This document shows, in pieces, positions 233 to 48,666 of a stretch of DNA of 64,000 nt. The stretch is from contig CAVPIB010000004.1 in the NCBI GenBank assembly GCA_963704885.1, positions 1,056,001 through 1,120,000 on the forward strand, in the 5' to 3' direction. Position numbers and translations under genes: made by a program. Origin of the DNA: an uncultured Actinomycetes bacterium. GTDB taxonomy: Bacteria; Actinomycetota; UBA4738; HRBIN12. The stretch's first letter is position 1. Every line of letters begins with the position of its first letter. The notes under the pieces were generated by a model. It was not told where the DNA came from, searched no databases, and saw only the letters and a program-made list of their open reading frames with translations.

Positions 233-1606
233 ATGAGGACGCTCATCACCGGCGGTACCGTCGTCACCGCCATCGAGACCACGCAAGCCGACGTCGTTAT
301 CGAAGACGAGAAGGTCGCCGCGATCGGCCGGGGTATGAGCGTCGAGCCGGACGTCACGATCGACGCCACCGACCGATACGTGATGCCGGGTGGCGTCGAC
401 GTCCACACTCACATGGAGCTGCCGTTCGGCGGAAGCTTCTGCTCGGACGACTTCGAGACCGGCACCCGCGCCGCGGCGTTCGGCGGCACGACCACGATCG
501 TCGACTTCGCGGTGCAGGACTACGGCGAGGGTCTGCGCCAAGGTCTGGATCGGTGGTTCGCCAAGGCGCAGAACGCCTGCACCGACTACGGCTTCCACGT
601 GATCGTCCGCGAGGTGAACGACCAGGTCCTCAAGGAGATGGACGAACTGGTCGGCGAGGGAGTCACGTCATTCAAGCTGTTCATGGCATATCCGGGTGTG
701 TTCATGCTGGACGACGCTTCGATATTCCGAGCCATGCGCCAGGCGGCCGACTCGGGCGCGCTGATCATGATGCACGCCGAGAACGGCGGCCCGATCGACG
801 TGCTGGTCCGTCAGTTCCTGGAGGAAGGCAAGACCGATCCCATCAACCACGGCCTGACGCGCCCCGCCGTCATGGAGGGCGAAGCTGTGCACCGGGTGTT
901 CAAGCTGGCCGAGCTTGCGGGCACGCCTGCCTACATCGTCCACCTGTCCTCGCGGGATGCGCTGAACGCGCTCCGCGAGGCGCGCGATCGCGGTCAAGCC
1001 GCCTTCGCGGAGACGTGTCCGCAGTACCTCTATCTGAGCCAGGACGACATGGCGAAGCCGGGCTTCGAGGGCGCGAAGTACGTCTGCTCACCACCGCTCC
1101 GCACGGCCGACCACCAGGAGGAGCTCTGGATGGGGCTGCGCTCCGGCGACCTCTCGGTCGTGTCCACCGATCACGCGCCGTTCAACTACGAAGGTCAGAA
1201 GGACCTGGGCAAGGGGGACTTCTCCAAGATCCCGAACGGGCTTCCCTCCGTCGAGGATCGGTTCACGCTGCTGTACGGAGGGGTCGAGGCGGGCCACATC
1301 GACCTGAACCGCTTCGTGGAGCTGGTGGCCACCGCGCCGGCCAAGATGTTCGGCCTCTACCCGCGCAAGGGAACGATCGCGCCGGGATCCGATGCCGACA
1401 TCGTGGTTTTCGACCCGAAGAAGGAGCGGACGATCTCCTCGTCCACCCACCACATGCGCGTGGACTACTCGGCCTACGAGGGCCGCGTGGTTCGCGGGCT
1501 CCCCGAGGTCGTCATGCAACGCGGCGAGGTCCTGGTGAGCGGCGGGGAGTTCCTGGGCAAGCCGGGACAGGGACGCTTCCAGCCCAGGAGCCGGCTCACG
1601 GCGTAG
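233..1606 (+). CDS. hydA: Dihydropyrimidinase / D-hydantoinase (HydA/HyuA family)
   Basis: PGGVDVHTH metal motif, GGTTTIVDF, SFKLFMAY (carbamylated Lys), HAENG, CSPPLR, STDHAPF, KIPNG. Confidence 0.95.
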   Translation: MRTLITGGTVVTAIETTQADVVIEDEKVAAIGRGMSVEPDVTIDATDRYVMPGGVDVHTHMELPFGGSFCSDDFETGTRAAAFGGTTTIVDFAVQDYGEGLRQGLDRWFAKAQNACTDYGFHVIVREVNDQVLKEMDELVGEGVTSFKLFMAYPGVFMLDDASIFRAMRQAADSGALIMMHAENGGPIDVLVRQFLEEGKTDPINHGLTRPAVMEGEAVHRVFKLAELAGTPAYIVHLSSRDALNALREARDRGQAAFAETCPQYLYLSQDDMAKPGFEGAKYVCSPPLRTADHQEELWMGLRSGDLSVVSTDHAPFNYEGQKDLGKGDFSKIPNGLPSVEDRFTLLYGGVEAGHIDLNRFVELVATAPAKMFGLYPRKGTIAPGSDADIVVFDPKKERTISSSTHHMRVDYSAYEGRVVRGLPEVVMQRGEVLVSGGEFLGKPGQGRFQPRSRLTA

Positions 1607-3944
1607 CCGTGGCAGTCGGCGGTCCGGACGAGGTCCGTGGCCCGACGAGCCCGACGAGGTCGTCGGGCTTCACCGGTACCCGGTTCAGCTCGCGTCCTGT
1701 CGCATCTCGCAGGGCGGCGACGATGGCCGCGGTGGCCACGACGGTCGACGGCTCGCCGACGCCCTTCGCACCGAAGGGCACGCCCGGCTCCGGTTCCTGC
1801 ACCAGCACCGTCAACATGGGCGGCATGTCGAGGATCGTCGGGATCAGATAGTCGGTGAACGACGCGTTGCGGATGTGGCCATCCTCGAGTAGCAGCTCCT
1901 CCATCAGCGCCAGACCCAGGCCCTGCGCCGTCCCGCCCTCGACCTGTCCCTCCACGCTCTTGGGGTTGAGCGCGTTGCCGACGTCTTGGGCGGCGGCTAT
2001 CTGGATCACGCGGACCAGTCCGAGATCCTGATCCACCTCCACGACCGCGCGTTCGACCGCGAAGGCGAACGAGACGTGGACATCCCCCTGTCCCGACTCG
2101 TCCATGGGTTGGGTAGGACGGTGGTGATAGACGCGGGTCGCTTCGATGGGCTCGCCCAGGAGATCCGCGACCGAACCGAGCGCGGACCCCTCGGCCAACA
2201 CCTGTCCCCCGTCCAGGCGTAGCTCGACGGCCCGGTCGATCGAGGGCGTTCGGGCCCGCACACGATCGAAGAGCTTGTTGCGCACGGCGGCGCACGCGAG
2301 CTGCACCGCCCCTCCAGACATCATGGTCTGCCGCGAAGCCGAGCTGGAACCCGCGGAGCCGATGCTCGTGTCGGATGGATCGAGGATCACTTCTTCCACA
2401 CCCAGCTCGCTGCGAGCGATCTGCATCAAGACGGTGTGCACACCCTGGCCGACCTCCGCCGCCGCGCTGTGTATCTCCACGAGCGGCCCGTCGGCTCCCA
2501 TCGAGAGCCTGACGCTCGCCTCCGACGAGTCGTCGAACCCCTCGCTGTAGGCCGTGTTCTTGTACCCGACCGCGAAGCCGACACCGCGTCTCAAGCCCTC
2601 ACCGTGCCCGACGTTCTGCGCTCCCCCCGGGACGGTGATGGGATCCCTTCCGTCCAGACCCGCCGCCCGCTCGGGCGGCATCGGGATCGCCGCGCATCGC
2701 TCGATGAGCTCCCTGACCGGCGCAGTCCCGCCGATGACCTGGCCCGTGGGCAGGGTCGAGCCGGTGGACAGGGCGTTCTTCAGGCGGAGCTCGACCGGGT
2801 CCATGCCCAGTGCGTGGGCGAGCTTGTCCATCTGTCCCTCGTAGGCGAAGCAGGCCTGGACCGCGCCGAACCCACGCATCGCGCCGCACGGCGGATTGTT
2901 GGTGTAGACGCCCGTCCCTTCGATGAGCGCATTCGGAACCTCGTAGGGCCCGCATGCGAACGTGGCGGCGTTTCCGATCACGGCCGTCGACGACGAGGCG
3001 TAGGCTCCTCCGTCCATCAGCAATCGGGCCCGGACGTTGACGAGGCTGCCGTCAGTGTTGGCTCCGTGACGCATCCAGATCCGCGAGGGATGGCGATGCA
3101 CGTGGCCGAGGAAGGACTCGGCACGTCCGTACGACATCTTCACGGGCCTGCCGGTGTGCAGTGCCAGCATGCTCGCGTGTATCTGCATGCTGAGGTCCTC
3201 GCGTGCGCCGAACGCTCCGCCGACCCCCGCGAGATGCACGCGGACCTTCTCTTCGGGCAGACCCAGGCAGGGTGCCATCTGCTGGCGGTCTACGTGCAGC
3301 CACTGGGTGGCGACGTAGACGTCGATCCCTCCGTCCTCGGCGGGCACCGCCAGACCCGCCTCCGGCCCCAGCGGCGCCTGGTCCTGCATCCCCGTCTCGT
3401 AGTAGCCCTCCACCCACACGTCGGCATCCGTATCGGGATCGCCGTGGACGATGCGGACGTTGCGCAGGATGTTGCCGAGCCCCGCGACCTTCGGCGCGTC
3501 GGGCCTGAGCGCCTCCTCCATGTCGGTGACGGCCGGGAGGATCTCGTAGTCCACCACCACGCTGGCCGCCGCCCGTCGAGCCAGCTCCGGATGCTCGGCC
3601 GCCACGATCACGACCGGCTCTCCCACGTACCGCACCTCGTCCCAAGCCAGGACGGGCTGGTCGGCGACATCCAGGCCGTACGTCCTCTTGCCGGGAACGT
3701 CGTCGGCGGTGAGCACGGCGTAAACCCCGGGGCTCGCCACCGCGCCCGCCACCTGTATCGAGCGGATCCTGGCGTGCGGATGAGGGCTGCGGAGCGTATG
3801 TCCCCAGAGCATCTCGTTCGCCCACAGGTCGCTCCCGTAGGCGAACGAACCCTTGGTCTTGGGGATCCCGTCTATCCGCGCGACGTCTTCCCCCATACCC
3901 CCCCGGGTGCGATCCCTCAGGCGCGTGTCACTCAAGGTCGACAC
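1596..3944 (-). CDS. Xanthine dehydrogenase family molybdopterin-binding subunit (PucD-like)
   Basis: VGGAFGARED, AMRGFG, SSASRQT, GQVEGG, GAKGVGEP. GTG at 3944 directly follows the upstream stop; the ORF-track extension to 4625 overlaps the deaminase and is discarded. Confidence 0.92.
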   Translation of the reverse strand: MSTLSDTRLRDRTRGGMGEDVARIDGIPKTKGSFAYGSDLWANEMLWGHTLRSPHPHARIRSIQVAGAVASPGVYAVLTADDVPGKRTYGLDVADQPVLAWDEVRYVGEPVVIVAAEHPELARRAAASVVVDYEILPAVTDMEEALRPDAPKVAGLGNILRNVRIVHGDPDTDADVWVEGYYETGMQDQAPLGPEAGLAVPAEDGGIDVYVATQWLHVDRQQMAPCLGLPEEKVRVHLAGVGGAFGAREDLSMQIHASMLALHTGRPVKMSYGRAESFLGHVHRHPSRIWMRHGANTDGSLVNVRARLLMDGGAYASSSTAVIGNAATFACGPYEVPNALIEGTGVYTNNPPCGAMRGFGAVQACFAYEGQMDKLAHALGMDPVELRLKNALSTGSTLPTGQVIGGTAPVRELIERCAAIPMPPERAAGLDGRDPITVPGGAQNVGHGEGLRRGVGFAVGYKNTAYSEGFDDSSEASVRLSMGADGPLVEIHSAAAEVGQGVHTVLMQIARSELGVEEVILDPSDTSIGSAGSSSASRQTMMSGGAVQLACAAVRNKLFDRVRARTPSIDRAVELRLDGGQVLAEGSALGSVADLLGEPIEATRVYHHRPTQPMDESGQGDVHVSFAFAVERAVVEVDQDLGLVRVIQIAAAQDVGNALNPKSVEGQVEGGTAQGLGLALMEELLLEDGHIRNASFTDYLIPTILDMPPMLTVLVQEPEPGVPFGAKGVGEPSTVVATAAIVAALRDATGRELNRVPVKPDDLVGLVGPRTSSGPPTATATP

Positions 3945-3945
3945 C

Positions 3946-5301
3946 TCAGCTCTTCCCCGCCAGGCGCCGCCCGACCCGCCGGGCTTCGGCCGCAACCTCG
4001 TCCTCATCGACGTTGGCCAGGCGGCCCTCACGAACGACAACCCTGCCCTCCACGAAGAGATGCCGCACCTGCTTGGGAGCGCACAGGAGCACCGCCGCGA
4101 CCGGGTCGGCCTCGGCGCCGGCGAAGCCGAGGCCATCCAGCCCGACGAGAGCGATATCGGCTCGCTTCCCGGGCTCGAGCGATCCGATGTCGTCCCTGCC
4201 CAGGCACGCCGCGCCGCCCCGCGTTGCCACCCGCAGGACGTCACGGGCGGCCATAGCCTCCGCGCCTCCGAACGCTCGCGCCGACAGCAGAGCCTGACGC
4301 GACTCGGCGAGCATGTTGCCGATGTCGTTCGACGCCGAGCCGTCCACACCCAGGCCGACGATGGCGCCCGCGTCGAGGAGCGATCGGGCGGGAGCGATGC
4401 CCGAGCCGAGCCGCATGTTCGACGAGGGACACCAGGCGACACCGGAGCCGGTCTCCGCGATCCTGTGGATGTCTGCGTCGTCCAGGTGCACGCAGTGGGC
4501 CAGCCAGACGTCTGGCCCCAACCAGCCTTGTTCCTCGAGCAGTTCGATCGGACGTTTCCCGAAGGTCTCCAGGCAGAAGGCCTCTTCGTCCTTCGTCTCG
4601 GCGATGTGCGTGTGGAGCCTGACACCCAGACGACGAGCGAGCTCGGCCGACTCGCGCATCAGCTTGTCGGTGGCGGAGAAGGGCGAGCACGGAGCCACCC
4701 CGATCCGCAGCATCGCGCCCGGCTCGGGGTCGTGGAACCGCCCGACCGTATCCTCGGTCTGCGCCAGGATCGTGTCGGTCTCCTGAACGACCGAGTCGGG
4801 CGGCAGCCCTCCCGCCGAGCTGCCCAGATCCATCGAGCCCCGGCAGGGGTGGAACCGCAGGCCGATCTCGGCCGCCGCCTCGATCTCGGTTTCCAGCAGC
4901 TCCCCCGCCCCCTGGGGGAACACGTAGTGGTGGTCCGCGGTCGTGGAGCATCCGGAGAGGGCGAGCTCGGCCAGGCCCACGGCCGACGCCGCACGCATCC
5001 ACTCCTGGTCGACGCCGGCCCACACGGGGTAGAGCTCGGTGAGCCAACCGAACAACCCCTGGTCGGCCGCCCGAGCCCGGGTCATGGTCTGGTAGAGGTG
5101 GTGGTGCGTGTTCACCAGACCGGGGATGGCCACGGTGCCGCGGCCGTCCACGCGCTCGGCTCCCTCCGCGCCGGGGGGCGCACCCGAACCGGCCCATGCG
5201 ATGACGCCGTCGTTCACAAGGATGGAGCCCCCTGCGATCTCGGATCCTCGGTCGTCCATGGTCACGACGACCTCGCACGACTCGATGAGCACCTGGCCCA
5301 C
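3946..5301 (-). CDS. 8-oxoguanine deaminase-like amidohydrolase
   Basis: VNTHHHLYQT, APCSPFS, HTHIAE, WLAHCVH, CPSSNMRLGSG, GVDGSASND. Confidence 0.85.
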   Translation of the reverse strand: MGQVLIESCEVVVTMDDRGSEIAGGSILVNDGVIAWAGSGAPPGAEGAERVDGRGTVAIPGLVNTHHHLYQTMTRARAADQGLFGWLTELYPVWAGVDQEWMRAASAVGLAELALSGCSTTADHHYVFPQGAGELLETEIEAAAEIGLRFHPCRGSMDLGSSAGGLPPDSVVQETDTILAQTEDTVGRFHDPEPGAMLRIGVAPCSPFSATDKLMRESAELARRLGVRLHTHIAETKDEEAFCLETFGKRPIELLEEQGWLGPDVWLAHCVHLDDADIHRIAETGSGVAWCPSSNMRLGSGIAPARSLLDAGAIVGLGVDGSASNDIGNMLAESRQALLSARAFGGAEAMAARDVLRVATRGGAACLGRDDIGSLEPGKRADIALVGLDGLGFAGAEADPVAAVLLCAPKQVRHLFVEGRVVVREGRLANVDEDEVAAEARRVGRRLAGKS

Positions 5302-5775
5302 CTAGCTCGCCTCCTCGGGCATCCGCTCCGCGGCGAGCCACACCGCATCGAGGATCTTCGCGTACCCCGTGCAGCGACATAGATTGCCCGACAGCGCCTC
5401 TCGAACAACGGGCTCGGTCGGCGCCGGGTCATGCTCCAGCAGGTCGGTCACGGCCACGATCAGGCCCGGCGTGCAGAACCCGCACTGAACCGCGCCCGCA
5501 TCGACGAACGCCCGCTGTACAGGATGGACCTGGTCGGTCGCCGCGAGCCCCTCGACCGTTCGGACCTCTCGCTCATGCGCCTGCGCCGCCAGGACCAGGC
5601 ACGAGCACACCAGCTCGCCGTCCAGCCAAACGGTGCACGAGCCGCATTCGCCTTGTTCGCATGCGTTCTTCGACCCGGGCAGGCCCATCTCCTCCCGCAG
5701 CACATACAGGAGGTTGGAGCCGGGCCAGACGTCGGCCTCCCGCCACTCGCCGTTGACGCTCACCCGGATCAGCAC
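5302..5775 (-). CDS. Xanthine dehydrogenase 2Fe-2S subunit (PucE/CoxS-like)
   Basis: [14 protein letters not shown] and NLCRCTGY motifs; GTG start at 5775 inferred. Confidence 0.92.
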
Positions 5776-5788
5776 CGCCACCCCCCGG

Positions 5789-6667
5789 TCATGTTCGCTC
5801 GATCCCATCCCGGCGCGACGCCAGGGCCCACCCCAGCGCACGTCGCGCCAGGACCAAGCATGCGTGTCGCCGGTACGCGGCCGACCCTCGCACATCGTCG
5901 ATAGGTCTCGCCGCGGCCGCGACCCGTTCGGCGAACCCCTCTATCTCCTCCGAGGCCAGAGCCGCCGCCGGCTCGTCCCATGTGCCGGACCGAGCCAGCG
6001 CCTCGGCCACGAACACCTCAGCGTCGGGCGCACGCAAGACGGTCGGTCCCACGGATCCGAGGGCGACGCGGACCGCGCGGGCGTCCTCGTCCAGCACCAG
6101 ACACAAGCCGGCCACCGAGATCACCATGGCGTTGCGCGTCCCTATCTTCGAGAACGAACCTGGCCCGCGAACCGCTCGCCATCTGGCGCCCAGGATCAGC
6201 TCTTCGGGTTCCAAGGCGGTCTGTTTCGGGCCGAGGTGGAACTCGTCCCAGCGCAAGGTCCGGGTGCGCCTCGCGCTCACGAGGACTATCTGCGCGTCGT
6301 AGGCGGCGAGCACCGGTAGCGCATCGCCGGCGGGCGAACCGGTGCCCAGATTGCCTCCCACCGTTCCGCGGGTGCGGATCTGTGGGGAGCCCACCGTCCG
6401 GGACGCCTGCGCGAGCGGCGTGAGATCGGACAGCTCTCGCAGGATCCGGCCATACGTCACGCCCGCCCCGAGGAAGATGGCGCCCTCCTCTCGCCTCCAC
6501 TCGCGCAGCTCTGGCAGGCGGCAGATGTCGATCATGATCTCCGGCCGGCGCAGGTCGAAGTTCAGCTCGACCATCACGTCAGTACCTCCGGCTATCGGGA
6601 GCGCTCCCGGGTGGGCGGCCCTCATCTCCAGGGCCTCGTCGAGCGTCCGCGCCAGCAACACATCCAT
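5789..6667 (-). CDS. Xanthine dehydrogenase FAD-binding subunit (PucC/CoxM-like)
   Basis: IAGGTD, GTVGGNLGTGSPAGD, PIDDVRGSAAYRR; ATG at 6667. Confidence 0.92.
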   Translation of the reverse strand: MDVLLARTLDEALEMRAAHPGALPIAGGTDVMVELNFDLRRPEIMIDICRLPELREWRREEGAIFLGAGVTYGRILRELSDLTPLAQASRTVGSPQIRTRGTVGGNLGTGSPAGDALPVLAAYDAQIVLVSARRTRTLRWDEFHLGPKQTALEPEELILGARWRAVRGPGSFSKIGTRNAMVISVAGLCLVLDEDARAVRVALGSVGPTVLRAPDAEVFVAEALARSGTWDEPAAALASEEIEGFAERVAAAARPIDDVRGSAAYRRHACLVLARRALGWALASRRDGIERT

Positions 6668-6678
6668 GAAGGATCCCC

Positions 6679-7696
6679 TTAGAACTCCCCGTCGGCGAAG
6701 GCGTCGATCATCGCAGGCACATCGTCTCCGACCGGGTAAAGGATCGGGCAGGTGCAGCCGGCCTCGACGTACTCGCGGACCTTCGCCCTGCACTCGTCGG
6801 GCGTTCCCGCGGCGGAGATCAGCTGCACTGCTTCGTCTGGCACGAGCTTCATGGCGCGGTGGATCTCCTCCGGTCCCGCCGGCCACGTGAGGACCTTGCC
6901 GATCTCCTCGATCAGTGCAGGGTCGATGCCGCTCGCCTTCATGATGTGCGGCTGCTGGCCAAGGTATTGCGTGAGCAGCTCACGAGCTCGATCGAGCGCG
7001 ACGTCTCGATCGTCGTCGAGCGAGCACACGACCAGCTGCGGACGATCGATGTCTTCCACACTTCTACCTACGCGAGCCGCTCCGGCGGCCAGAGCGCGCA
7101 TGGCCTCCTGGTTGTATAGAGGTCCCACCATGTAGTTGAGCACCACTCCGTCCGCGATCTCGCCGGCGAGCTCCATCATCTTCATCCCGGTCGCTCCGAC
7201 GTAGATCGGAACGTTCTTCGGCGAGCGATCGCCGTGCACGATGTCGATCTCGATGTCGTCGACATGGACGAGCTCCCCGTGGAACGTCACGCGTTCCATC
7301 GCCAGGAGCCGTCGCACGACCTCCACGGTCTCGCGCATCGCCAGCAGGGGTTTCCGACGCTGGATCCCGACCTTCGAGGCGAGTGGGTCCCACCAGGCGC
7401 CGATGCCCAGCAGGATCCGTGCCGGGCGCGAGGTCGTCCAGCGTCGAGAACGTGGCCGCGAGCAGACCGACGTTGCGGGTCCAATTGTTGACCACACCCG
7501 AGCCGACCTTGATCCGATCGGTAACGGCGGCGAACGCGGCCATCGGCACGGTCGCTTCTCGGACCAGCCGGCTCTCGGCCTGCCACACCGCCTCGAATCC
7601 CCGCTCCTCGGCGTAGCGCGCATACTCCATCCCCTCGCGGATCGGATGCTTGTCCTGCAGATACAGCGCCACCCTTCCCTCGGTCCTCACGCTCAA
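6679..7696 (-). CDS. LLM-class (Mer-like, probably F420-dependent) oxidoreductase; one frameshift near 7420
   Basis: N-half ([12 protein letters not shown]...TLDDLAPG) and C-half ([10 protein letters not shown]...VPIYVGATG...GEIADGV) lie in different frames; removing one base at ~7420 gives APGRILLGIG. TTG start overlaps the ssnA stop. Confidence 0.85.
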
Positions 7697-9024
7697 GAGG
7701 CGTCTCCTCCCAACGGATCGAAGCCGTGCGGCTCGATCGACGAGTACCGCTCCCACAGGCGTCGGGCGACCTCCGAGGCTTTCGCCGCGAGTTCGTCTTG
7801 GTCGACCTTGACGAGCCGCCGTTCCCGCACCACGAGCTCGCCGGCCACGATGACGTCTCGCACAGCGCGGGAGGCGAGGCCGAACATCCGATGTCCGGCC
7901 AGGTTCTCGGCCGTCAGCGGGGTGGGCACAGGAGCATCGAGCACCACGAGATCCGCGGCGGCCCCGGGCTCGATCCGCCCGAACGCCGTCTCTTCGAAGA
8001 GCCTGCCCACGAGGCGGCCGCCCTCGGCCAGGCGTGCCGACGGCCATCCGATCGGGAACGAGACGTCGTCATCCCTGGCCCGGAAGTACGCAGCCTTGGC
8101 CTCCGCGAACATGTCGGCGCCGATGCCATCGGTGCCCAGCGCGACCCTATCGCCGAGCGCTGCGACCGCCGCATGACCGACCGAGTTGTTCATATTGGAC
8201 GTGGGGTTGTGCGCGACCGACGCACCCGACTCCCGCACGGACGCCGTCTCGGCTTCGTCAAGGTGGATGCAGTGGGCGAGCAGGGCGCCATCATGCAGCA
8301 CGCCCGCCTTCTCGAGCCTCGGAACCACCCTGATGCCGAAGCGCTCGACCGCGTCTCTTTGATCGCTCACGTCTTCAGCGACGTGGATGTGCAGGCCCGC
8401 GCCCGTCCGTGCCGACACATCCACGCACGCGTCGAGCGTCTCAGGCGAGAGCGTGAAGGACGCGTGGGCCCCCACCATGCCTCGCGCCAGGGGCCGGCGC
8501 TGCGCGAGGAACCGTTCGTTCTCAAGTACTCCAGCCGCGGCGATCCCGGCGCCGTCCCTGTCGCTCACCTCGTAGCAGAGCACCGACCGTATGCCGACCT
8601 CCTCGAGCGCGTTGGCCACGATGTCGAGCGAGCCGTCGACGGCGTTCGGGGATGCGTGGTGATCGACCACCGTGGTGGTTCCGCAGAGCAGCGCTTCCAT
8701 GCCGCCGACCAGCGCGGAAGCGCGGATCGACTCCTCATCCAACGCCCGGTCCAGCCGCCACCAGATGCGCTGGAGGATCTGCACGAAGTTCTCAGGTGGG
8801 GCGAGCCCGTAAGGCATGCCGCGCGCGAGAGCGGAATACAGATGGGTGTGGGCGCACACGTTGCCCGGCACGATCAGGCACCCGGTGCAATCGAGCCTGG
8901 TCCCGCCGCCGGTGGCACTCCCCGGCGCCGAAACGTGGCCGCCTTCCACCACCACGTCGGTCCGTTCGATCATGGGGGGCTCGAGCGCGGAGACCACCGT
9001 CCCCCCCGAGAGCACGAGGGTCAT
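7693..9024 (-). CDS. ssnA: SsnA-family amidohydrolase
   Basis: [52 protein letters not shown]; sits next to Se-type xdh and yge genes. Confidence 0.8.
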
Positions 9025-9040
9025 CGTTCGCCCGCTCCGC

Positions 9041-11680
9041 CTACGCCCTCGCGCCTTCACCGGCCTCGGCGCGCGCCGAGGCCAGCCGCGGCACCGCCGC
9101 GCGGGCTGCAGGGGAATCGGTCATCGGCAACCGTGTCCTACGCACCCTGTCGAACGCATACAGCGCTCCGGCGACGGCACCGGCCGTCGGAACCAGGGCT
9201 ATCTCGCCGACGCCCTTAGCACCGTAGGGCCCCTCCGGCTGGTGCTCCTCTACGAAGATGCACTCGAGCGGCGGCATCCCCATCGGAGGGATGATGTTGA
9301 GCGACTTCAGCGTCTGCGTCATCGGGATGCCATCCGCCATCACGAGCTCCTCCGACAGCGAGTGTCCGAGACCCATGTGGAGTCCGCCCTCCACCTGTCC
9401 TTCCAGGAGCGTTGGATTGATGACCTTGCCGACGTCGTGTGCGGCGACGATCTTCTCGATAGCGCCGTCGTCGTCAAGGATCACCACCTGGGTCGCCCAG
9501 CCGTAGGCGAAATGCGTTGCGGACCCCTCGGGCCCTTCGCCGGGCTTGTGCGTCCAGTCGATCAACACCTCGCCATAGAACTCTTGTCCCGCAAGGTCTT
9601 CTAGGCGTCCACCGTTCATCGCGGCCTTGAGCTTGGCCGCCGCCTCGATGACTGCTCGCCCGCCCAGCACGGTCGCGCGTGAGGCTGTCGTCTGCCCCGT
9701 GCCGAGCTCCCGCATCGTGTCGACGACGACCACCACGCGGTCCGGTGTAAGACCGAGCTCCTCGCACGCGATCTGCATCAGAGCCGTGTTCGAGCCCTGG
9801 CCCATCTCGGTCCATGAGTGGAACAGGGTCACGCCGCCGTCAGATCCCGGTCGCAGGATCGCCTTCCCGTACTCCGGGAGGCCGTTGCCGATGCCCGTGT
9901 TCTTCACGCCGCACGCAACGCCAGCGTGTTTCGCGCCTCGATAGGCATCTTTGACCGCGAGCAGCGTTCTCTTGAGACCCACGCCGGGGCCCAGAACCTG
10001 ACCGGTCGAGAACGTATCGCCGACCTCCAGCGCGTTGCGCCAGCGGATCTCCCAGCCGTCGATCCCCACCTTCTCGGCCAAGATGTCCATCATGCCCTCG
10101 ATGGCGAAGTTCGACTGGTTGGCACCGAAGCCGCGCATCGCCCCGCACGGTGGGTTGTTCGTGAAGACCGCGCGAGCCTCGATATCCACGTTCGGCACCC
10201 GGTACGCGCTGCAGGCGTGACCCGCAGCTCGTTCGAGGACCTTGTCGCCCACGCTCGCGTACGCGCCGGTATCTCCCACCATCCGGCTCCGGACCGCCAC
10301 CAGCCGGCCCTCTTCGTCGCAGCCGACCGTGTACTCCATGGTGATGGGGTGTCGCTTCGGGTGGAAGCGGATGCTTTCGGCCCTGGAGAGCGTGAGGAGA
10401 ACGGGCCGTCCCGTCATGCGCGCCAGCAAGCATGCATGCGTCTGGACGTTCAGGTCCTCCTTGGCACCGAAAGCGCCGCCGTTGGAGACCTGGGTCACGC
10501 GCACCTGATCGTTGGGCACCCCGAGGAAGGACGCGATCTGGTCTCGGTCTTCCCAGACACCCTGCCCCTGGGAGAAGCAGTGGATGCCTTCGTCGGTCGG
10601 CATAGCGAAGGCCGACTCGGGCTCCAGGAAGGCATGTTCGATGAACTGCGTCCGGAAGGTCTCGGTGGCAACGTGCGCGGCCGTCGCCAGCGCACCGTCC
10701 ACGTCGCCCCGCTTGACCTCGGAGATCGAGAAGAGATTGCCGTTCTCGTGGATCTCCGGAGCACCGTCGGCGATCGCGTCGAATGGATCGGTGACGGGCT
10801 CGAGGACCTCGTACTCGACATCGATCAGAGCCGCAGCCTCTCGCGCGGCCACGCGGTCTTCCGCCGCTACGACGGCCATGACGTCGCCGACGTAGCTCGT
10901 GATCTCGCCCTCCGCGACGAACTGTCGCCAGTCCTTGACGATCAACCCCTGCCTTCGCTCCCCCGGCACGTCCTTCCACGTGGCGACGGCCGCGACGCCG
11001 GGGTATGCCTCAGCCCTCGACGTGTCGATCTTCGTGATGAGCGCGCGCGGATGCTCGGACCAGGCAACGGCCCCGTGCAGCATGCGGGGCGCCTTCATGT
11101 CGTTGATGTAGGCCTTGTCGCCGAGCGCGAGGTCGTGCCCCTGGTACCTGGCCGTCCTAGACCCGACGCGGCCGCTACGGTCGATCTCGGGCATCGGCTC
11201 GCCACGCCTGGCCCCGGCCACCAACCGGATGGCGTCGATGATCTTGACGTAGCCGGTGCACCGGCAGAGGTTCCCGGCGAGCGCCTTGGCCACATCCTCA
11301 CGAGACGGGTTCGGGCTCTTCGCCAGTAGCGATTCGGACTTCATCACGATGCCGGGCGAGCAGAACCCGCACTGGGACGCTCCGGCCGCGACGAAGCAGT
11401 CCGCCCACTGGTGCCGCCGATCGGGTGTGAGTCCCTCCTGGGTCGTGATGCTCTTCCCGATGAACCTGGCGGCAGGCTGCGCGCACGATACGACGGCCTT
11501 CGCGTCGACCAACACGGTGCAGGCGCCGCACGATCCTTCCGGCGCGCATCCGTCCTTGACCGACGTGACACCGCAGCCCACGCGCAGGAGGTCGAGGAGG
11601 CTGGCGCCCCCGCCGACCTCGACGGACATCGGCTCACCGTTGAGTATGAATTCCACCCTGAGCCTCCGGTCCCGAGCCAT
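9041..11680 (-). CDS. Selenium-dependent-type xanthine dehydrogenase (fused 2Fe-2S + Mo-binding)
   Basis: N-terminal SVKDGCAPEGSCGAC, QCGFC, CRCTGY followed by NGGAFGAKED, RFHPKRH, AMRGFG, TTASR, GAKGVGEI; architecture and context of the Se-dependent Mo hydroxylases. Confidence 0.8.
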   Translation of the reverse strand: MARDRRLRVEFILNGEPMSVEVGGGASLLDLLRVGCGVTSVKDGCAPEGSCGACTVLVDAKAVVSCAQPAARFIGKSITTQEGLTPDRRHQWADCFVAAGASQCGFCSPGIVMKSESLLAKSPNPSREDVAKALAGNLCRCTGYVKIIDAIRLVAGARRGEPMPEIDRSGRVGSRTARYQGHDLALGDKAYINDMKAPRMLHGAVAWSEHPRALITKIDTSRAEAYPGVAAVATWKDVPGERRQGLIVKDWRQFVAEGEITSYVGDVMAVVAAEDRVAAREAAALIDVEYEVLEPVTDPFDAIADGAPEIHENGNLFSISEVKRGDVDGALATAAHVATETFRTQFIEHAFLEPESAFAMPTDEGIHCFSQGQGVWEDRDQIASFLGVPNDQVRVTQVSNGGAFGAKEDLNVQTHACLLARMTGRPVLLTLSRAESIRFHPKRHPITMEYTVGCDEEGRLVAVRSRMVGDTGAYASVGDKVLERAAGHACSAYRVPNVDIEARAVFTNNPPCGAMRGFGANQSNFAIEGMMDILAEKVGIDGWEIRWRNALEVGDTFSTGQVLGPGVGLKRTLLAVKDAYRGAKHAGVACGVKNTGIGNGLPEYGKAILRPGSDGGVTLFHSWTEMGQGSNTALMQIACEELGLTPDRVVVVVDTMRELGTGQTTASRATVLGGRAVIEAAAKLKAAMNGGRLEDLAGQEFYGEVLIDWTHKPGEGPEGSATHFAYGWATQVVILDDDGAIEKIVAAHDVGKVINPTLLEGQVEGGLHMGLGHSLSEELVMADGIPMTQTLKSLNIIPPMGMPPLECIFVEEHQPEGPYGAKGVGEIALVPTAGAVAGALYAFDRVRRTRLPMTDSPAARAAVPRLASARAEAGEGARA

Positions 11681-11703
11681 GCTGGCCCGCGTTCAACGAG
11701 TCG

Positions 11704-12848
11704 TCAATCCGTGCCCACGATCTGGCGATAGGCCTGTGGGTCGGTTGCCCCTTCCGTAGAGACCACCAGCACGGTGCTGCCACCGTCGACGCCCAGCGAG
11801 CGCCGCGCGTCCTCAGCGGAGGGGCCGGTCAGGACTTCGAGCAGCCCGCCCAACCCCGAGGCGCCGGACTCCCCGGAAACGATGCCCTCCTTCGCGAGCA
11901 GTCGCATCGCCTCGCGCGCACGTTCGTCCTCGATCGCGACGAACACATCGATACCACGGGAGAGCACGGGCCAAGCGATCAGCGACGGCGTCCCGCAGTT
12001 GAGGCCAACCATGATCGAGCGGTGAGGACCCGGAACGCTCACGACCGTTCCCGCGCGAGCGGACTCGAGCGCACAGTCGGCGTCGAGGGGCTCGACGCCG
12101 ACGATCGCCGTGTGTCCGACAGCGTCGGGGCTCCGCAGATGCTGCACCACCGCACACGCGAAGGCCCCAACGCCGATCTGGGCGGCCGCGAGGTCGATCC
12201 GGTCGCCTGTCGCATCGAGCGCTCCCTGCACCTCGCGCATCACCGTTCCGTATCCCTCGATGATCCACCGCGGAACGCGGTCGTAGCCGGGCCAGGAGGT
12301 GTCGGAGATCACGAGGCAGTCATCAGACGCCTCGGCCGCCGATCGACGGATCGTCTCGTCGTAGTCGCCGTCCACCACGGTCACGCGGGCGCCCTCCGAC
12401 GCGATCGCAGCGATGCGCGCGTCCGACGTCCCTTCAGGCACGAGGATGTCAGCGCCCAGGCCCAGGAGCGCCGCCATCCGCGCGACCGCTCGGCCGTGGT
12501 TCCCGTCGGTCGCCGCCGCGAGCGAAAGGGGCTTGATCGGTGCCAACAGCTCGCCGAGTTGATCGAACGTCTCCCAAGCGGGGAGCGGATCGCCCAGCTT
12601 CTCCAGGACCGCTCGATAGACGGCCCAGGACGCGCCGAGGATCTTGAACGAGGGCAGGCCGAACCGGCTGGACTCGTCCTTCACGAGGACGCGGGCGACC
12701 CCAAGAGCTGCGGCGATACCAGGCGCGCTCAGCAATGGCGACGGCTCGTACCCAGGCAAGCGCTCGTGGAACCGCAGAGGCTCCGGCGTTGGTGGCTCAT
12801 CCAGGCGGAACCGCCGCGCCTCTTCTAGGTTGTCGAACCGCTCGCTCC

Positions 12849-12852
<4 letters not shown>
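11704..12852 (-). CDS. dpaL: Diaminopropionate ammonia-lyase (YgeX/DpaL)
   Basis: [16 protein letters not shown] (PLP Lys), [39 protein letters not shown]. Confidence 0.9.
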
Positions 12853-14341
<1,489 letters not shown>

Positions 14342-14345
<4 letters not shown>

Positions 14346-15340
14346 ACTCGAAACCCGCCCATGGTGAGAGCCATGAGGGCCTTCCCCGTGTGTAGGCGGT
14401 TCTCGGCTTCCTGGAAGACGACCGAGTGCGGCCCGTCGATCACCTCGTCGGTGACCTCCGAGCCTCGGTCGGCCGGCAGGCAATGCATGTAGAGGGAGTC
14501 CTCTCGCGCGAGCGACATCCGGCGAGCGTCGCAGATCCAGTCCTGATACTTCGAGCCGTCGGCAAGTGCTTCCTGCTCGTTGCCGAACAGATCCAGCCGG
14601 CCCCAAGACTTCGGATAGACCACGTCGGCGCCTTCGAATGCTGCGTCCATGTCGTCTACGAAAGTGATCGAGCCTCCACCCTGCGCGGCGGCGTCTTCGG
14701 CTCGCTTCTGCAGCTCGGGCATGAAGCCGTAGCCCGGCGGATGGGCTACTACAACCTCTGCGCCGAATCGCGGAAGGAGAGCCACCAGGCCCTGCGGCAC
14801 CGAGATCGGCTTCGCGTAGGACGGCGCGTGCGCCCAGCTGACGGCAACACGTAGCCCCCGGATGTCGTTGCCGCGAAGCTCTCTGATGGTCATGAGATCC
14901 GCGAGCGTCTGCGTCGGGTGGTCCACGTCGCACTGGAGGTTGATCACGGGCACCTCCGCCCACTCGGCGACCGCGCGCATATACGCATTGCCCTCATACG
15001 GAACGAGGTCATGACGGATCGCGATGCCGTGCCCGTAGCTCGAGAGGATGATGCCGAAGTCCTTCGGGCTCTCGCCGTGCGCCACCTGCGTCTTCTCGGC
15101 GTCGAGATAGTGGGCGTGTCCCCCCAACTGGGTCATCCCTGCCTCGAAAGCGTTGCGGGTCCTCGTCGACTTGTCGAGGAACAACATGAACAGCGTCTTG
15201 TCGGGAAGCAGGCGGTGCGCCTCGCCCCGCTTGAACTTGTCCTTCAGCTCCCCGGCGACGTCGAGAGCCTCGTCGATCGCCTCGACTGACCAATCGAGCG
15301 TCTCGATGTAGTCGTGTCCGGCCAGCGTCTCGCGATCCAC
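14342..15340 (-). CDS. ygeW: YgeW-type carbamoyltransferase
   Basis: STRT and HCLP transcarbamylase motifs plus YgeW-like [27 protein letters not shown] and VYPKSW; GTG at 15340 preceded by GAGGAGG. Confidence 0.8.
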
Positions 15341-15374
15341 CCCTGGTCCTCCTCTCGCCTCGGAAAGTCTGGGC

Positions 15375-16595
15375 TCAGCTCGACCCCGCACCCGACGCCG
15401 CAAGGTACCGCTCGGGGAAGGCCGCGTACCACGCTGCGGCCGTGGCGAGATGTTCGACCGGACACTGGTCGTCGACGCTGTGCGCGTAGATCTCGTTCGC
15501 GGGCCCGAACCCGATCGTCGGGATCCCGAGCTCCCCGGCGCTCGAGACGCCGTTCGTCGAGAAGATCCAACGGCTGACCTTCGGGGTCCGGCCGAGGGCG
15601 TGCTCGCCGGCCTCGACCCCTGCCTTCACGGAAGGATGAGCTTCATCCGTCACCCAGGTCGGGAAGTACTTGGGCGTCTTGAGCGTGAGCCCGGTGTAGG
15701 CCTTGCCCTCGTACTGCACGAGCTCGATCTGCGCGTCCCCGTCCTGGACGGCCGGCAGCGACTCCAGCTCGGCCTGGGACGACTCCACCGACTCGCCGAT
15801 CGTCAGGCGCCTGTCGAGGAAGATCGTGCATCCGTCCGGCACGGCGTTCAGCGAGGGCGTCTGGCACTCCACCTTCGAGACGACGACGGTCCCTTTGCCC
15901 AGGAACGGATCGGGGGCGAGTCGCTCGTTCAGTTGCTCGATCTGCTGGGCGATCGGAGCCATCATGTAGATGGCGTTGACCCCGCGCTCGGGAGCCGAGG
16001 CGTGGGCCGCCTTGCCGCGCGTGTGGATAGCGAACTCCGCGCGCCCACGGTGCCCCCGGTATACCTGCAGGTTCGTCGCCTCACCGAGCACGACCACCTC
16101 GGCTTTGGGGATCACGTTCGTCAGGAGGTATCCGAGCGCCAACCCGTCGCAGTCCTCCTCTTGGACGGTACCCACTACCCATAATGTGAACCTCGACGTG
16201 TCGATGCCGAGGCGTCGGATGAGCGACGCGCCGTAGACCATCGAGGCGATCGCCGCCTTGTTGTCCGAAGCGCCGCGGCCGTACAGGACGCCACCTTCGA
16301 TCCTGGCTTTGAACGGATCGGACTTCCACAGGCTTAGGTCGCCGGTGTCGACCACGTCGATGTGGGAGTCGTAGACGATGTGGACGGGGCCGTCACCGAT
16401 GCGACCGATCACGCTGCCGAACCCATCGACGATGACCTCGTCGAAACCCATCCGCGTCATCTCGTTGCCGATGCGCTGCACGACCGAGTTCTCGTCCCTC
16501 GACAGGCTCGGCAAGGAGACCAAGTCGGCCAGGAAGGACGTCACCGCCTCGGAATCCCGATCGGCTTCCTTCTGGTAGCGCTCGTCGAGCTTCAT
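15375..16595 (-). CDS. ygeY: YgeY-family M20 hydrolase
   Basis: DSHIDVV, GRGASD, GTVQEEDCDG, YRGHRGR, FLGKG, FSTNGVS, GFGP. Confidence 0.85.
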   Translation of the reverse strand: MKLDERYQKEADRDSEAVTSFLADLVSLPSLSRDENSVVQRIGNEMTRMGFDEVIVDGFGSVIGRIGDGPVHIVYDSHIDVVDTGDLSLWKSDPFKARIEGGVLYGRGASDNKAAIASMVYGASLIRRLGIDTSRFTLWVVGTVQEEDCDGLALGYLLTNVIPKAEVVVLGEATNLQVYRGHRGRAEFAIHTRGKAAHASAPERGVNAIYMMAPIAQQIEQLNERLAPDPFLGKGTVVVSKVECQTPSLNAVPDGCTIFLDRRLTIGESVESSQAELESLPAVQDGDAQIELVQYEGKAYTGLTLKTPKYFPTWVTDEAHPSVKAGVEAGEHALGRTPKVSRWIFSTNGVSSAGELGIPTIGFGPANEIYAHSVDDQCPVEHLATAAAWYAAFPERYLAASGAGSS

Positions 16596-16773: not shown

Positions 16774-17932
16774 TTACGCGCCGCCCTCCTCGAGCGTGAC
16801 CTCCGTCGGCGCATAGCTATCGCCGGACGTGTCAACGCCCAGATCGGCCAAGGCCGCGAGCGCCTCGTTCACGATGTCGTTCGTCCACGCCCCATCGGTC
16901 GGCTCCGCGGTAAGCACCGTGGCTCCCTCCAGGTTCGGAGTATCCATCGCGATCTGGACCGTGCGGTCCCACGCGGCCTCGTCGATCACGCCGATCCCGT
17001 TCGAGGACGGCCAGATCAGCTGGTTGATCTCGTTCATCTGCCACAGCTGGTGGCTGTTGCCGAGCTTCGAGCCCTTCGCCACGACGATGTCGCGGCACTC
17101 CTCGACGTTGTCCCGGCAGTAAGCCCATCCCTGCAGCGACGCGGTCACGAACCGTACCGCCATGTCGCGGTATGCGGCGTCGGACTCGAGCTTGTCGGCG
17201 TTCGCCCAGATCGCATCCTGCAGCATGCCGACGCCCTCGCCCTCGTAAGACACGACGTTCAGCTCGTCCGGCGTGTACAGCTCACCCGTGTCCGGGTTCA
17301 CGGCCTCCAGCACCTGCGCGTACTCGTTGTAGATCATGGCCTCGGCGGCGTCGATGTCGCCCGACAGCAGCCCAAGCATGTCGAACTGCTGCTGCACCAA
17401 CGAGACGTCGTTAGCGGGGTCGAGGCTCTTCCTTGGCCAGGGCGGCGAAGATCTCGTACTCGTTGCCGAAACCCCAGTTGCCGATCGTCTTTCCGGCGAA
17501 GTCGGCGGCCGACGTGATCCCGGCGTCCTTGAACGAGACCTGCAGCGTGCCGGAACGCTGGAACACCTGCGCGATGTTCACGATGTTCGCCCCGGCCTCG
17601 CGGCTCGCGAGGGCCTTCGGGACCCACGCCATCGCGAAGTCCACGGCGCCATCGGCGAGCTGCTGCTGGGGCACGATGTCGACGCCGCCCTCGACGATCG
17701 TCACGTCCAGGCACTGGTCGGCGTAGAAGCCCTTGTCCTGCGCCGCGAAGAACCCTGCGAACTGAGCCTGGATGAACCACTGCAGCTGGAGCTTGACCGA
17801 GTCGGTCGTCGTGCACTCCTCTTCGCCGCCGCCGCCGCCCCCGCCTCCTCCGTCGTCGTTGCTACATGCTGCGCCCACGAGCGCGAGCGCCACCACCCCT
17901 GCGGCGATGAGACGGAATCGATGACCCCTCAT
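16774..17932 (-). CDS. ABC substrate-binding lipoprotein, NMT1/THI5 family; frameshift near 17427
   Basis: Lipobox GAAC, Gly linker, LQLQWFIQAQFAG; removing one base at ~17427 joins AKE to GLDPANDVSLVQQQF. Confidence 0.88.
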
Positions 17933-18000
17933 GTGTTGCCTCCTCCCCCCGGGGCGACAGCCCCGCTCGAACTTCTCTCAAGACGATCGGCCATCATGCC

Positions 18001-18813
18001 CTATCGAGACGTCGGCCGCCGACCCGGCGTGGCGACGCGCTCCAACCCCACCGCGATCAGGTAGAACGTGAGCCCCAGGAGGCAGGCCCCCATCACGTAG
18101 GCCCAGGCCGATGCGTTCTTCGAGATCGCGATGCTCGCGACTATCCGGCTCCCCAGGCCGTTCTGGCTGCCGCCGAAGTACTCCGAGACGAACGCCGTGA
18201 TAACGGCGGCCGGCGCCGCGATCCTGAGCGCCGTGAACAGGTACGGCACCGCGTTCGGCACCCGGACCTTCCGCAGGATCGCGACCTCGCTGGCCGCGTA
18301 GGAGCGCATCAACTCGAGCTGCGTCGGACCGACCTCCCTTAGACCTCTGGCCACATTCACCAATACGATGAAATAGACGACGAGGCTCACCATCAGCCGC
18401 CGAGGCACCTCGCTGGTGATCGAGAACATGTTATTGAACACCGACACCAGGACGAAGATCGGTACCGCGTTGAGTCCGATCGCGAGCGGCGTGACCAGGT
18501 CGTTCAACAGGCGGAACCGCACCAGCAGGAAGCTCATCGTGATGCCGAGCCCGGTTCCCACCAGCAACCCGATCAGGGCGTTCAGCCCGGAGACCTTCGT
18601 CGCGTTCCATATCAGGGTCGTGTTCTCGTTGAACTGCTGCCAGATCGAAGTCGGTGCCGGCAGGAAGTAGGGCTTGAAGTCGAACACCTTCACGGCGAGC
18701 TCCCAGAGCACGAGGAACCCGAGACCGAACACGACCGGCGGCCACAGGGACTGGAACAGCGACCCGGTCGAGCGGGTCCGCCGGGCCTGGCTGGACGCCA
18801 GCGCGGAGCTCAC
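18001..18813 (-). CDS. ABC permease (SsuC/TauC/ThiX type)
   Basis: Multiple TM segments; ELMRSYAAS...KVRVPNAVPYLF, SEYFGG. Confidence 0.9.
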   Translation of the reverse strand: MSSALASSQARRTRSTGSLFQSLWPPVVFGLGFLVLWELAVKVFDFKPYFLPAPTSIWQQFNENTTLIWNATKVSGLNALIGLLVGTGLGITMSFLLVRFRLLNDLVTPLAIGLNAVPIFVLVSVFNNMFSITSEVPRRLMVSLVVYFIVLVNVARGLREVGPTQLELMRSYAASEVAILRKVRVPNAVPYLFTALRIAAPAAVITAFVSEYFGGSQNGLGSRIVASIAISKNASAWAYVMGACLLGLTFYLIAVGLERVATPGRRPTSR

Positions 18814-19649
18814 GGTTCCAGCACCGCCTCGTCCAGGTCGGTCACCTGCATCCCGCGGAGTGCCTCGCGCACCTCCGTGACCTTCCGGAAGAAGGCAGCG
18901 TCCTCGCGCGTGTCGACGTCGCGCCGAGCACCCAGGTCAACGTCGATCATGGTCTTGATCCGGCCCGGCCGCGGAGACATCACGACCACTCGGGTCGACA
19001 GGTAGACAGCCTCTGGGATCGAGTGGGTCACGAACACGACCGTGGTCTCGGTCTCGCCGCAGATCCGAAGGAGCTCGGTCTGCATGTGCTCGCGGGTCAT
19101 CTCGTCCAGGGCGCCGAACGGCTCGTCCATCAGCAGCAGCGGCGGGTGCGCGGCCAGCGCGCGGGCGATCGCCACGCGCTGTTGCATGCCACCCGAGAGC
19201 TGCCACGGAAGATGATCCGCGAACTCCGGTAGCTTCACGAGCTCCAACATCTCCATCGCGCGCTTGCGCCGTTCCTCCTTGCCACGGCCCTTCAGCTCCA
19301 GCGGCAGCTCCACGTTCTTCGCAACCGTGCGCCATTCGAACAGGCCGGCATGCTGGAACGCCATGCCGTAGTCCTGGTCCAACCGCGCCTGCCGCGCAGG
19401 CTTTCCGTTCACCAGGACCTCGCCGGAGGTGGGCTCCAGCAGGTTCGCGATCAACCGGAGCTGTGTGGACTTCCCGCATCCCGACGGCCCGATCAGCGAG
19501 ACGAACTCCCCAGGCGAGATCGTCAGGTCTATGTCCACCAGCGCGTCGACCGCATTGGGCAGCCCGGCGTTGAACGTCTTCGTCAGGTCCCTGACCTCGA
19601 CGGCAGCCGCGGCCGGCGCATCGGAGATCACGCTCTTGGGATCGCTCAT
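18810..19649 (-). CDS. ABC ATP-binding protein
   Basis: GPSGCGKST, LSGGMQQR, LLMDEPF, VTH; ATG at 19649 overlaps the upstream stop. Confidence 0.95.
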   Translation of the reverse strand: MSDPKSVISDAPAAAAVEVRDLTKTFNAGLPNAVDALVDIDLTISPGEFVSLIGPSGCGKSTQLRLIANLLEPTSGEVLVNGKPARQARLDQDYGMAFQHAGLFEWRTVAKNVELPLELKGRGKEERRKRAMEMLELVKLPEFADHLPWQLSGGMQQRVAIARALAAHPPLLLMDEPFGALDEMTREHMQTELLRICGETETTVVFVTHSIPEAVYLSTRVVVMSPRPGRIKTMIDVDLGARRDVDTREDAAFFRKVTEVREALRGMQVTDLDEAVLEP

Positions 19650-22409: not shown

Positions 22410-22528
22410 CGCGCAACTCCCTCTTCCGGCTCTGGGTGCCATGGTAGTCAGCCGGTCCGAACGGCGCGACCCTAACGCCCCGCGACAGGCGGTGGCGCTC
22501 GGCATCCCATCGGCCGTAGGCTCGACGG

Positions 22529-35739: not shown

Positions 35740-35749
35740 GCTCGCTCCC

Positions 35750-48654: not shown

Positions 48655-48666
48655 CGTGCGGCCTTC

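Follow-up and report, generated by a model that had tools for sequence, protein, structure and literature searches.

Which enzyme carries out the ring reduction in a purine-catabolic gene cluster that encodes the reductive urate pathway and has no counterpart of YgfK? This question is raised by a 64,000-nt stretch of DNA from an uncultured Actinomycetes bacterium (GTDB lineage Actinomycetota; UBA4738; HRBIN12; GenBank assembly GCA_963704885.1, contig CAVPIB010000004.1, positions 1,056,001 to 1,120,000), referred to below as the window, in which a gene for a luciferase-like oxidoreductase (LLM; 6679..7696, minus strand) directly follows ssnA. We propose that a Mer-like LLM family in Actinomycetota performs the task of YgfK (DOPOR) in the reductive urate pathway in an F420H2-dependent manner, a reading to which we assign a probability of about 0.55. 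At the level of the family, the proposal is well supported by gene context and by the fold class of a predicted structure, and from these we infer the likely substrate, cofactor and direction of the reaction.

The known pathway offers two solutions to the reduction step. According to Liu et al. (bioRxiv 10.1101/2025.04.24.650524), 2,8-dioxopurine is formed by XdhAC and YgfK acts as an NADPH:2,8-dioxopurine oxidoreductase; a second study (Li et al., bioRxiv 10.1101/2025.05.19.654654, PMC12507026) reports that YgfK yields product only together with SsnA, and that Clostridioides difficile uses a PydA homologue, UacX, in place of YgfK. It is only for E. coli and Clostridium that the pathway, and with it the requirement for coupling the reduction to SsnA, has been shown (PMC12507026; 10.1101/2025.04.24.650524). 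According to Li et al., whose SsnA similarity network took in neighbourhoods of 15 genes, both YgfK and UacX are missing from Chloroflexota, and these authors suggest, on bioinformatic grounds, that a PF00296 protein found in the SsnA neighbourhoods of this phylum stands in for the two with coenzyme F420 (PMC12507026).

The ssnA–LLM pair and its conservation

The two genes share four bases on the minus strand (TTGA at 7693..7696, read as tcaa on the plus strand), where the TTG start of the LLM gene lies on the TGA stop of ssnA. Seven nucleotides before this TTG, and still within the 3′ end of ssnA, the sequence contains a Shine-Dalgarno-like, putatively ribosome-binding run (GGGAGGAG, 7704..7711, minus strand). 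The LLM gene is split by one extra base and comprises 338 codons if read through; in the resulting read-through protein of 338 residues (P0001), the ACGG at the break was read as T, and residue 93 is accordingly T, as opposed to R in the homologues.

The window has a G+C content of 67%, and its purine-catabolic cluster extends over positions ~233-16595, with nearly all of its genes on the minus strand. Apart from the YgfK step, the window holds the reductive urate (2,8-dioxopurine) cluster: SsnA, the XdhD-type hydroxylase, HyuA, YgeY and YgeX all reach curated cut-offs, SsnA barely so (444.1 against 444 bits). Searches with tblastn found no match in the 64-kb window either to E. coli YgfK (at E ≤ 1e-3) or to the PydA-type E. 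coli proteins PreA and PreT, and a YgfK or PF01180 architecture was found in none of the 19 window open reading frames (ORFs) scanned with NCBIfam or the 39 further ORFs scanned with Pfam. The LLM is the sole oxidoreductase without an assigned role in a cluster that is otherwise complete except for the YgfK step. An earlier note on this DNA had remarked on the absence of a ygfK-like gene, on the TTGA overlap and on the usual proximity of ygfK to ssnA, and the first two observations hold; as to the third, ygfK does stand directly before ssnA in E. coli K-12. That the LLM could itself be a YgfK/DOPOR homologue (TIGR03315, IPR017701) was rejected, as YgfK gave no tblastn match in the window or in any of the 80 related loci described below; given this, the LLM could only be an analogue.

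To place the gene pair in a broader context, species-representative genomes were scanned with an alignment of the family (A1). Of the 597 stretches matched, 575 encode relatives; the 80 best loci, at 71-91% identity, were retained and compared by tblastn with the cluster proteins of the window and with E. coli proteins. Upstream DNA of at least 1300 bp before the LLM gene was available in 67 of the 80 loci, and in 51 of these 67 the gene immediately preceding it on the same strand is ssnA (with its match broken into frames in 5 of the 51); five of the 13 loci with short upstream DNA terminate within an ssnA-like gene. Where the ssnA ORF was unbroken (42 loci), its stop overlaps the start of the LLM gene in 27 (13 by 4 nt, 5 by 1 nt, and one by an implausible 263 nt), while gaps of 0-10 nt and 11-60 nt separate the two genes in 11 and 4 loci, respectively. 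YgfK was found in 0 of the 80 loci (tblastn, E ≤ 1e-2). The other neighbours in the 51 ssnA–LLM loci include the XdhD-type hydroxylase (37 loci), the carbamoyltransferase (36), a cysK-like pyridoxal phosphate (PLP) enzyme (34), the FAD-binding subunit (23) and the carbamate kinase YqeA (15): ssnA is the constant partner of the LLM gene, and the remaining neighbours vary.

In a tree of 79 sequences (L057 and L058 were omitted because of a stop codon and short length), the LLM of the window falls into a side of 58 rows dominated by Actinomycetota, with carriers in Gaiellales, Thermoleophilia, Acidimicrobiales, Nocardioidaceae, Streptosporangiaceae and Frankiaceae. Its nearest row, L003, is 91% identical and has an identical gene order. 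Two cultured organisms, Fodinibacter luteus JCM 17809 (L041) and Aciditerrimonas ferrireducens JCM 15389 (L060), carry the ssnA–LLM pair, which makes the question directly testable. According to a review (PMC8498797), F420 biosynthesis genes occur in Actinobacteria, Chloroflexi and Acidobacteria, among others, a distribution that fits the occurrence of the LLM family.

We also examined possible fused forms of the protein. Eighteen longer proteins (P0122-P0138) were matched, 11 of which combine PF00296 with PF01979, while in others the LLM runs on into the product of the gene downstream, be it a carbamoyltransferase, an FAD subunit or an ABC ATPase. Each of the 18 forms a cluster of one sequence, and we did not accept them as true fusions; they are probably read-through artefacts of overlapping genes.

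Family, fold and active site

P0001 matches PF00296 at 231 bits over residues 13-315. Homologues are plentiful, with at least 8000 candidates at E ≤ 1e-20 in a word-based search; the best 120 are 84-97% identical, 96 of them being exactly 338 residues long and the remainder 330-350, and it is intact homologues that reach 97% identity to P0001. The best NCBIfam matches were the two Mer models, both below their curated cut-offs (NF002619, 178.7 bits, cut-off 276; TIGR03555, 172.3 bits, cut-off 348.7), and the first 17 matches were F420-type LLM families throughout (Mer, then 15 more), with FMN families lower in the ranking. No NCBIfam model was reached by the LLM family at its curated cut-off, and the RutA model (TIGR03612) had no match at E ≤ 1e-6 for P0001 or P0002. 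A profile search against the PDB likewise placed Mer first (168 bits), then FGD, FGD2 and Adf, with SsuD and LuxA at about E = 1e-6.

The predicted structure points in the same direction. An AlphaFold model based on a 42-sequence alignment (mean predicted local distance difference test score, pLDDT, 89.6) consists of alternating strands and helices, and a Foldseek search against the PDB returned Mer for each of the top 8 hits (25-32% identity, TM-score 0.83-0.86); other F420 enzymes ranked next, and FMN enzymes came later (TM-score 0.64-0.74). SsuD, LuxA and SfnG stood far lower than the F420 enzymes in these sequence and fold comparisons. Judged by its nearest relatives in sequence and modelled fold, the LLM probably belongs to the F420 class of the PF00296 hydride transferases, in agreement with the earlier note, which had described it as Mer-like and F420-class. 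As for a sequence fingerprint that separates F420 from FMN enzymes, the available portion of Mascotti et al. 2018 (PMC6279831) provided no usable motif.

In jMer, a non-prolyl cis-peptide between Gly61 and Val62 backs F420, Glu6, Asp96, Gln178 and Phe233 are located at the pterin site, and hydride passes from F420H2 to an iminium carbon (PMC11094777). We compared Gly61-Val62, Asp96, position 178 and Phe233 with the LLM through the ungapped PDB-profile alignment, which does not extend to Glu6, and assessed conservation across 42 sequences. Gly61-Val62 aligns with Gly67-Val68 of the LLM, of which Gly67 is invariant and Val68 nearly so; the correspondence is one of aligned sequence, from which the cis conformation cannot be read. 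On the substrate side, Asp96 is replaced by Trp102 and Phe233 by Gln243, and Asn187 stands at jMer position 178, all three LLM residues being invariant. A cofactor side that is apparently kept and a substrate side that is changed suggest a Mer-like F420 enzyme that is not Mer. The candidate identification of the LLM as a Mer equivalog was rejected on the same replacements and on the scores below both curated cut-offs.

Proposed reaction, rival explanations and the broken reading frame

Under the proposed mechanism, F420H2 would bind at the C-terminal face of the TIM barrel, above the conserved Gly67-Val68 pair as a putative backstop, and hydride would be transferred to C6 of 2,8-dioxopurine, across the N1=C6 bond. 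SsnA, translationally coupled on the same message, would hydrolyse the dihydro product and thereby draw the unfavourable reduction forward, after which the hydantoinase, carbamoyltransferase, YgeY and YgeX would convert the product to pyruvate and ammonia. We hold a wider form of this idea more tentatively, at slightly less than even odds: an F420H2-dependent LLM coupled to SsnA may constitute a conserved reductase-hydrolase module through which hundreds of soil Actinomycetota species, most of them aerobic, run the "anaerobic" reductive urate pathway, and the same lineage paired with other amidohydrolases in Acidobacteriota may mark a more general route, driven by F420, by which N-heterocycles are dearomatised and opened.

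A number of observations weigh against a dedicated, F420H2-dependent replacement of YgfK. The LLM copy in the window is frameshifted as given. CofC and CofD had no tblastn match in the window, no F420-biosynthesis Pfam family occurred among the scanned ORFs, and neighbours that do speak for an F420 link appeared in just 3 of the 80 loci: L065, with CofC and CofD ~1 kb from the LLM gene (4320-5930), and L063 (10287-12369) and L071 (10971-12805), where genes for a PF03807 Fno-like protein and a DAO oxidoreductase come after the LLM gene. The XdhD-like protein (9041-11680) lacks an insertion of E. coli XdhD that includes Glu606, a residue proposed to orient urate (Li et al. 2025, PMC12507026), and 2,8-dioxopurine is therefore not established as the product of this enzyme; the insertion is also missing from the two other molybdenum subunits of the window, from E. 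coli XdhA and from the XdhD-like proteins of L003 and L016. A full-text literature search for F420 together with SsnA or dioxopurines returned only Li et al. and a commentary, with no assay of any family member. Exclusion of the UacX type is not absolute either, since one locus of the 80, from Acidimicrobiales (L029, 3735-11011), has genes for pyruvate:ferredoxin oxidoreductase, a PF01180 UacX-like protein (38.7 bits), SsnA and the LLM in a row, and is the only one with both candidate reductases.

The gene is also found in other company. In 16 of the 67 loci with sufficient upstream DNA, ssnA is not directly upstream; three of these (L011, L026 and L039) fall on the Actinomycetota side of the tree, L026 having a partial ssnA 9.5 kb away, and 13 fall on the other side, at 73-77% identity, in Acidobacteriota, Chloroflexota, a Deinococcus metagenome-assembled genome (MAG) and a proteobacterial MAG. 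Pfam searches on 88 ORFs from 14 loci without an adjacent ssnA, supplemented with tblastn, showed the LLM gene (74-77% identity) divergently paired with a gene for a 540-580-residue Amidohydro_3 protein in seven Acidobacteriota loci (L023, L038, L047, L056, L057, L058 and L064). In L057 and L064, a CN hydrolase, an SsnA-like amidohydrolase (47-48%) and a PLP enzyme are encoded nearby, as are a CN hydrolase and a 47% SsnA-like protein in L075; the neighbours in L066 and L080 are unrelated. Such close relatives in different contexts imply that the substrate of the LLM may be broader than, or different from, the one proposed.

This last point is what speaks for regarding the LLM as a general F420 enzyme, with a substrate unrelated to purines, that has merely hitch-hiked into the operon behind ssnA in Actinomycetota: the family is very conserved across phyla, and its relatives at 73-77% identity in Chloroflexota and elsewhere adjoin unrelated genes, among them those for fructose-bisphosphate aldolase, a competence protein, and Fno with the DAO oxidoreductase. 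We nonetheless regard this as quite improbable, because ssnA directly precedes the LLM gene in 51 of 67 loci, often with the stop of one overlapping the start of the other, in a pairing that extends across Gaiellales, Acidimicrobiales, Nocardioidaceae, Streptosporangiaceae and others, and because even the Acidobacteriota relatives adjoin amidohydrolases (the divergent Amidohydro_3 in seven loci, SsnA-like proteins in L057, L064 and L075). It is somewhat easier to imagine, though still unlikely in our view, that the LLM does belong to the purine cluster and serves another step or uses another cofactor, acting on a different intermediate or, in these aerobic lineages, as a RutA-like ring-opening oxygenase with FMN. 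LLMs do include FMN monooxygenases that open pyrimidine rings, and one of the other LLMs in the window matches the NCBIfam RutA model; soil Actinomycetota make up most of the carriers, Trp102 and Gln243 set the substrate pocket apart from that of Mer, and production of 2,8-dioxopurine by the XdhD-like enzyme is unproven. However, P0001 itself gave no RutA match, FMN families scored far below F420 families and FMN enzymes trailed in the fold search; no flavin reductase gene was noted beside the LLM gene in the NCBIfam and Pfam scans of window ORFs, and reduction is the one step of the cluster without an enzyme.

The frameshift requires separate consideration. The LLM stretch is 1018 nt long, i.e. 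339 codons plus one base. Frame 1, read from 7696, yields the N-terminus as far as ...LDDLAPG, the remainder (...ILLGIGAWW...) lies in the next frame, and a TAA stop occupies 6679-6681. DNA alignment with five related loci assigned the extra base to the codon of Arg93 (7417..7420, minus strand), where the window has ACGG and the relatives have AGG or CGG; LDDLAPG-R-I/V spans the break in all nine aligned homologues, and the gene of the window carries no lesion besides the extra base. A programmed frameshift was rejected, in that there is no slippery site and no nearby 0-frame stop, and all homologues are single-frame. The window holds at least three more genes that are divided between frames like this one, with consecutive parts of a family in adjacent ORFs: an F420-class LLM (27883-28356 / 28364-28780, plus strand), an NMT1-type solute-binding protein (17411-17932 / 16774-17400, minus strand) and an M20 peptidase (56140-56517 / 55436-55984, minus strand).

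If the frameshift were real, the LLM gene would be a fresh pseudogene, with the pathway either switched off or served by a reductase encoded outside the window. We treat this as a serious possibility but the less probable one. The extra base is present in the sequence as given and lies outside any homopolymer run, the commonest spot for long-read errors; there is no slippery motif or close stop of the kind that programmed frameshifting would use, and the 0 frame remains open for ~118 more codons. On the other hand, no further lesion was found across 338 codons, an intact homologue shares 97% identity with the protein, and the ratio of non-synonymous to synonymous substitution rates (dN/dS) against L003 is 0.055 for the whole gene (dS 0.89), with low values both before (0.024) and after the break (0.07). 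G+C at third codon positions is 0.87 before and 0.83 after the break, and the branch of the window in the tree is 0.08, compared with 0.085 for L003. The low dN/dS and the short branch indicate that purifying selection acted on the gene until very recently or still does so. The rate of split genes in the window suits an error-prone assembly better than a free-living genome, related long contigs likewise show fragmented ssnA matches (5 of 51), and, since AGG and CGG both occur at this codon among relatives, ACGG could have arisen as a consensus of two strain variants. The extra base is hence more likely to stem from an error of assembly or from a very recent mutation, at roughly twice the odds of an established pseudogene.

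Taking these points together, the suggestion of the earlier note that an F420-type LLM displaces YgfK stands as far as the conserved ssnA–LLM pair and the absence of YgfK from its vicinity are concerned; it was already in print, the activity it assigns is a prediction from context and fold class, and the copy at hand is frameshifted. Its expectation that YgfK and this LLM would be mutually exclusive agrees with the absence of YgfK from all 80 loci, but does not hold strictly, given the PF01180 protein that accompanies the LLM in the Acidimicrobiales locus.

Neighbouring genes, meaning and known systems

The cluster to which the LLM gene belongs can be followed on the minus strand from a YgeY-family hydrolase (15375..16595; NF009555, 476.9 bits, cut-off 321) through a carbamoyltransferase (14342..15403), which is ornithine-carbamoyltransferase-like or YgeW-like, falls under the cut-offs of both families and is 36% identical to E. 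coli YgeW. Between this gene and that for a YgeX-type diaminopropionate ammonia-lyase (11704..12852; NF006058, 363 bits, cut-off 276) is a second, cysK-like PLP enzyme gene (12849..14012, start approximate), which has no counterpart in the E. coli cluster and recurs at 65-72% identity in the 34 related loci counted above. Next come an XdhD-like molybdenum hydroxylase with N-terminal 2Fe-2S domains (9041..11680; TIGR03311, 981.2 bits, cut-off 830.45) and the SsnA-type amidohydrolase (7693..9060), which matches NF005540 at 444.1 bits (cut-off 444) and TIGR03314 at 426.6 bits (cut-off 455.5) and is 37% identical to E. coli SsnA. Behind the LLM gene, and beginning 11 nt past its stop, lies the gene for an XdhB-like FAD-binding subunit of a molybdenum hydroxylase (5789..6667; 150.8 bits, below cut-off), followed by those for a 2Fe-2S subunit (5302..5811, from the NCBIfam scan), an 8-oxoguanine deaminase (3946..5301; NF006055, 657.2 bits, cut-off 532) and a PucD-type xanthine dehydrogenase molybdenum subunit (1596..3905; TIGR03196, 864.3 bits, cut-off 783.65). 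On the plus strand, a D-hydantoinase/dihydropyrimidinase (233..1606; TIGR02033, 591.1 bits, cut-off 393.25) is the counterpart of HyuA and shares 44% identity with the E. coli protein. YqeA had no tblastn match in the window at E ≤ 1e-3.

Further catabolic genes occur elsewhere in the window. A second LLM gene (20548-21561, minus strand), of the F420 class by TIGR03842 (569.9 bits, cut-off 295), comes directly after a CN hydrolase gene (aguB/beta-ureidopropionase-like; region 20548-22616) and is followed by an ABC transporter with an NMT1-type binding protein (16774-20681, minus strand). That this second LLM passes an F420-class cut-off is indirect evidence for F420 in the host, and the region may serve another F420-linked step in the breakdown of N-heterocycles or pyrimidines; a link between the two LLMs was considered and dismissed, as they are only 22% identical and therefore of different families. 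Positions 35657-43913 hold a third molybdenum hydroxylase set, with an FAD subunit (35657-36583) and a fused 2Fe-2S/molybdenum subunit (36379-39312) that is the best match of the window to E. coli XdhD, together with a 471-residue ORF without a family, an AA_synth gene (PF06684), an amidohydrolase gene and a gene of the isochorismatase family; the set resembles a separate cluster for the degradation of heterocycles. Two amidohydrolases are encoded beside an aldehyde dehydrogenase at 46069-49992 (minus strand), one an 861-residue fusion of Amidohydro_1 and Amidohydro_2, the other a 441-residue SsnA/chlorohydrolase-like paralogue that scores 246 bits against the SsnA model, below its cut-off.

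If the proposed role is correct, it would be the first physiological role in purine breakdown for an F420-dependent enzyme and would connect purine catabolism with coenzyme F420. Soil Actinomycetota would then commonly possess, with a different reductant, the reductive urate pathway that was just described in gut anaerobes, and the LLM would offer a small, soluble candidate with one domain, more readily tested than the Fe-S flavoprotein YgfK. The value of the finding is reduced by the prior publication of the idea as a prediction and by the frameshift in the window copy.

Of the characterised enzymes, Mer (PDB 8qpl, 1z69, 1f07, 1ezw) is the closest to the LLM in sequence and fold; the Gly-Val pair that backs F420 in jMer is kept in the aligned sequence, and in both enzymes (for the LLM as proposed) hydride would go to the carbon of a C=N bond. 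The LLM differs from Mer in scoring under both Mer cut-offs, in the replacement of Asp96 and Phe233 and in its gene context, which is purine catabolism. With YgfK/DOPOR of E. coli and C. sporogenes, the LLM shares the proposed reaction and a place directly beside ssnA, but no sequence relation: YgfK is a 1032-residue Fe-S flavoprotein that uses NAD(P)H and is encoded before ssnA, whereas the LLM is a 338-residue TIM barrel, probably dependent on F420H2, encoded after it. UacX of C. difficile, a PydA homologue (PF01180), likewise replaces YgfK non-orthologously in the same cluster; its fold is of the FMN/DHO_dh type and its suggested donor is ferredoxin, and the window contains no PF01180 protein.

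The nearest precedent is the Chloroflexota LLM of Li et al. (PMC12507026), for which the same proposal was made, namely a PF00296 protein near SsnA with F420 as reductant. Chloroflexota are the phylum named there in the text and legends, whereas the carriers described here are mainly Actinomycetota. Unlike in the neighbourhoods of Li et al., ssnA is not adjacent to the LLM gene in the six Chloroflexota relatives among our best 80 loci wherever upstream DNA exists, and the published Chloroflexota LLM may thus belong to another lineage or rank below these 80. While the idea itself is already in print, its extension to Actinomycetota, the tight coupling of the two genes and the wide spread of the pair are new here.

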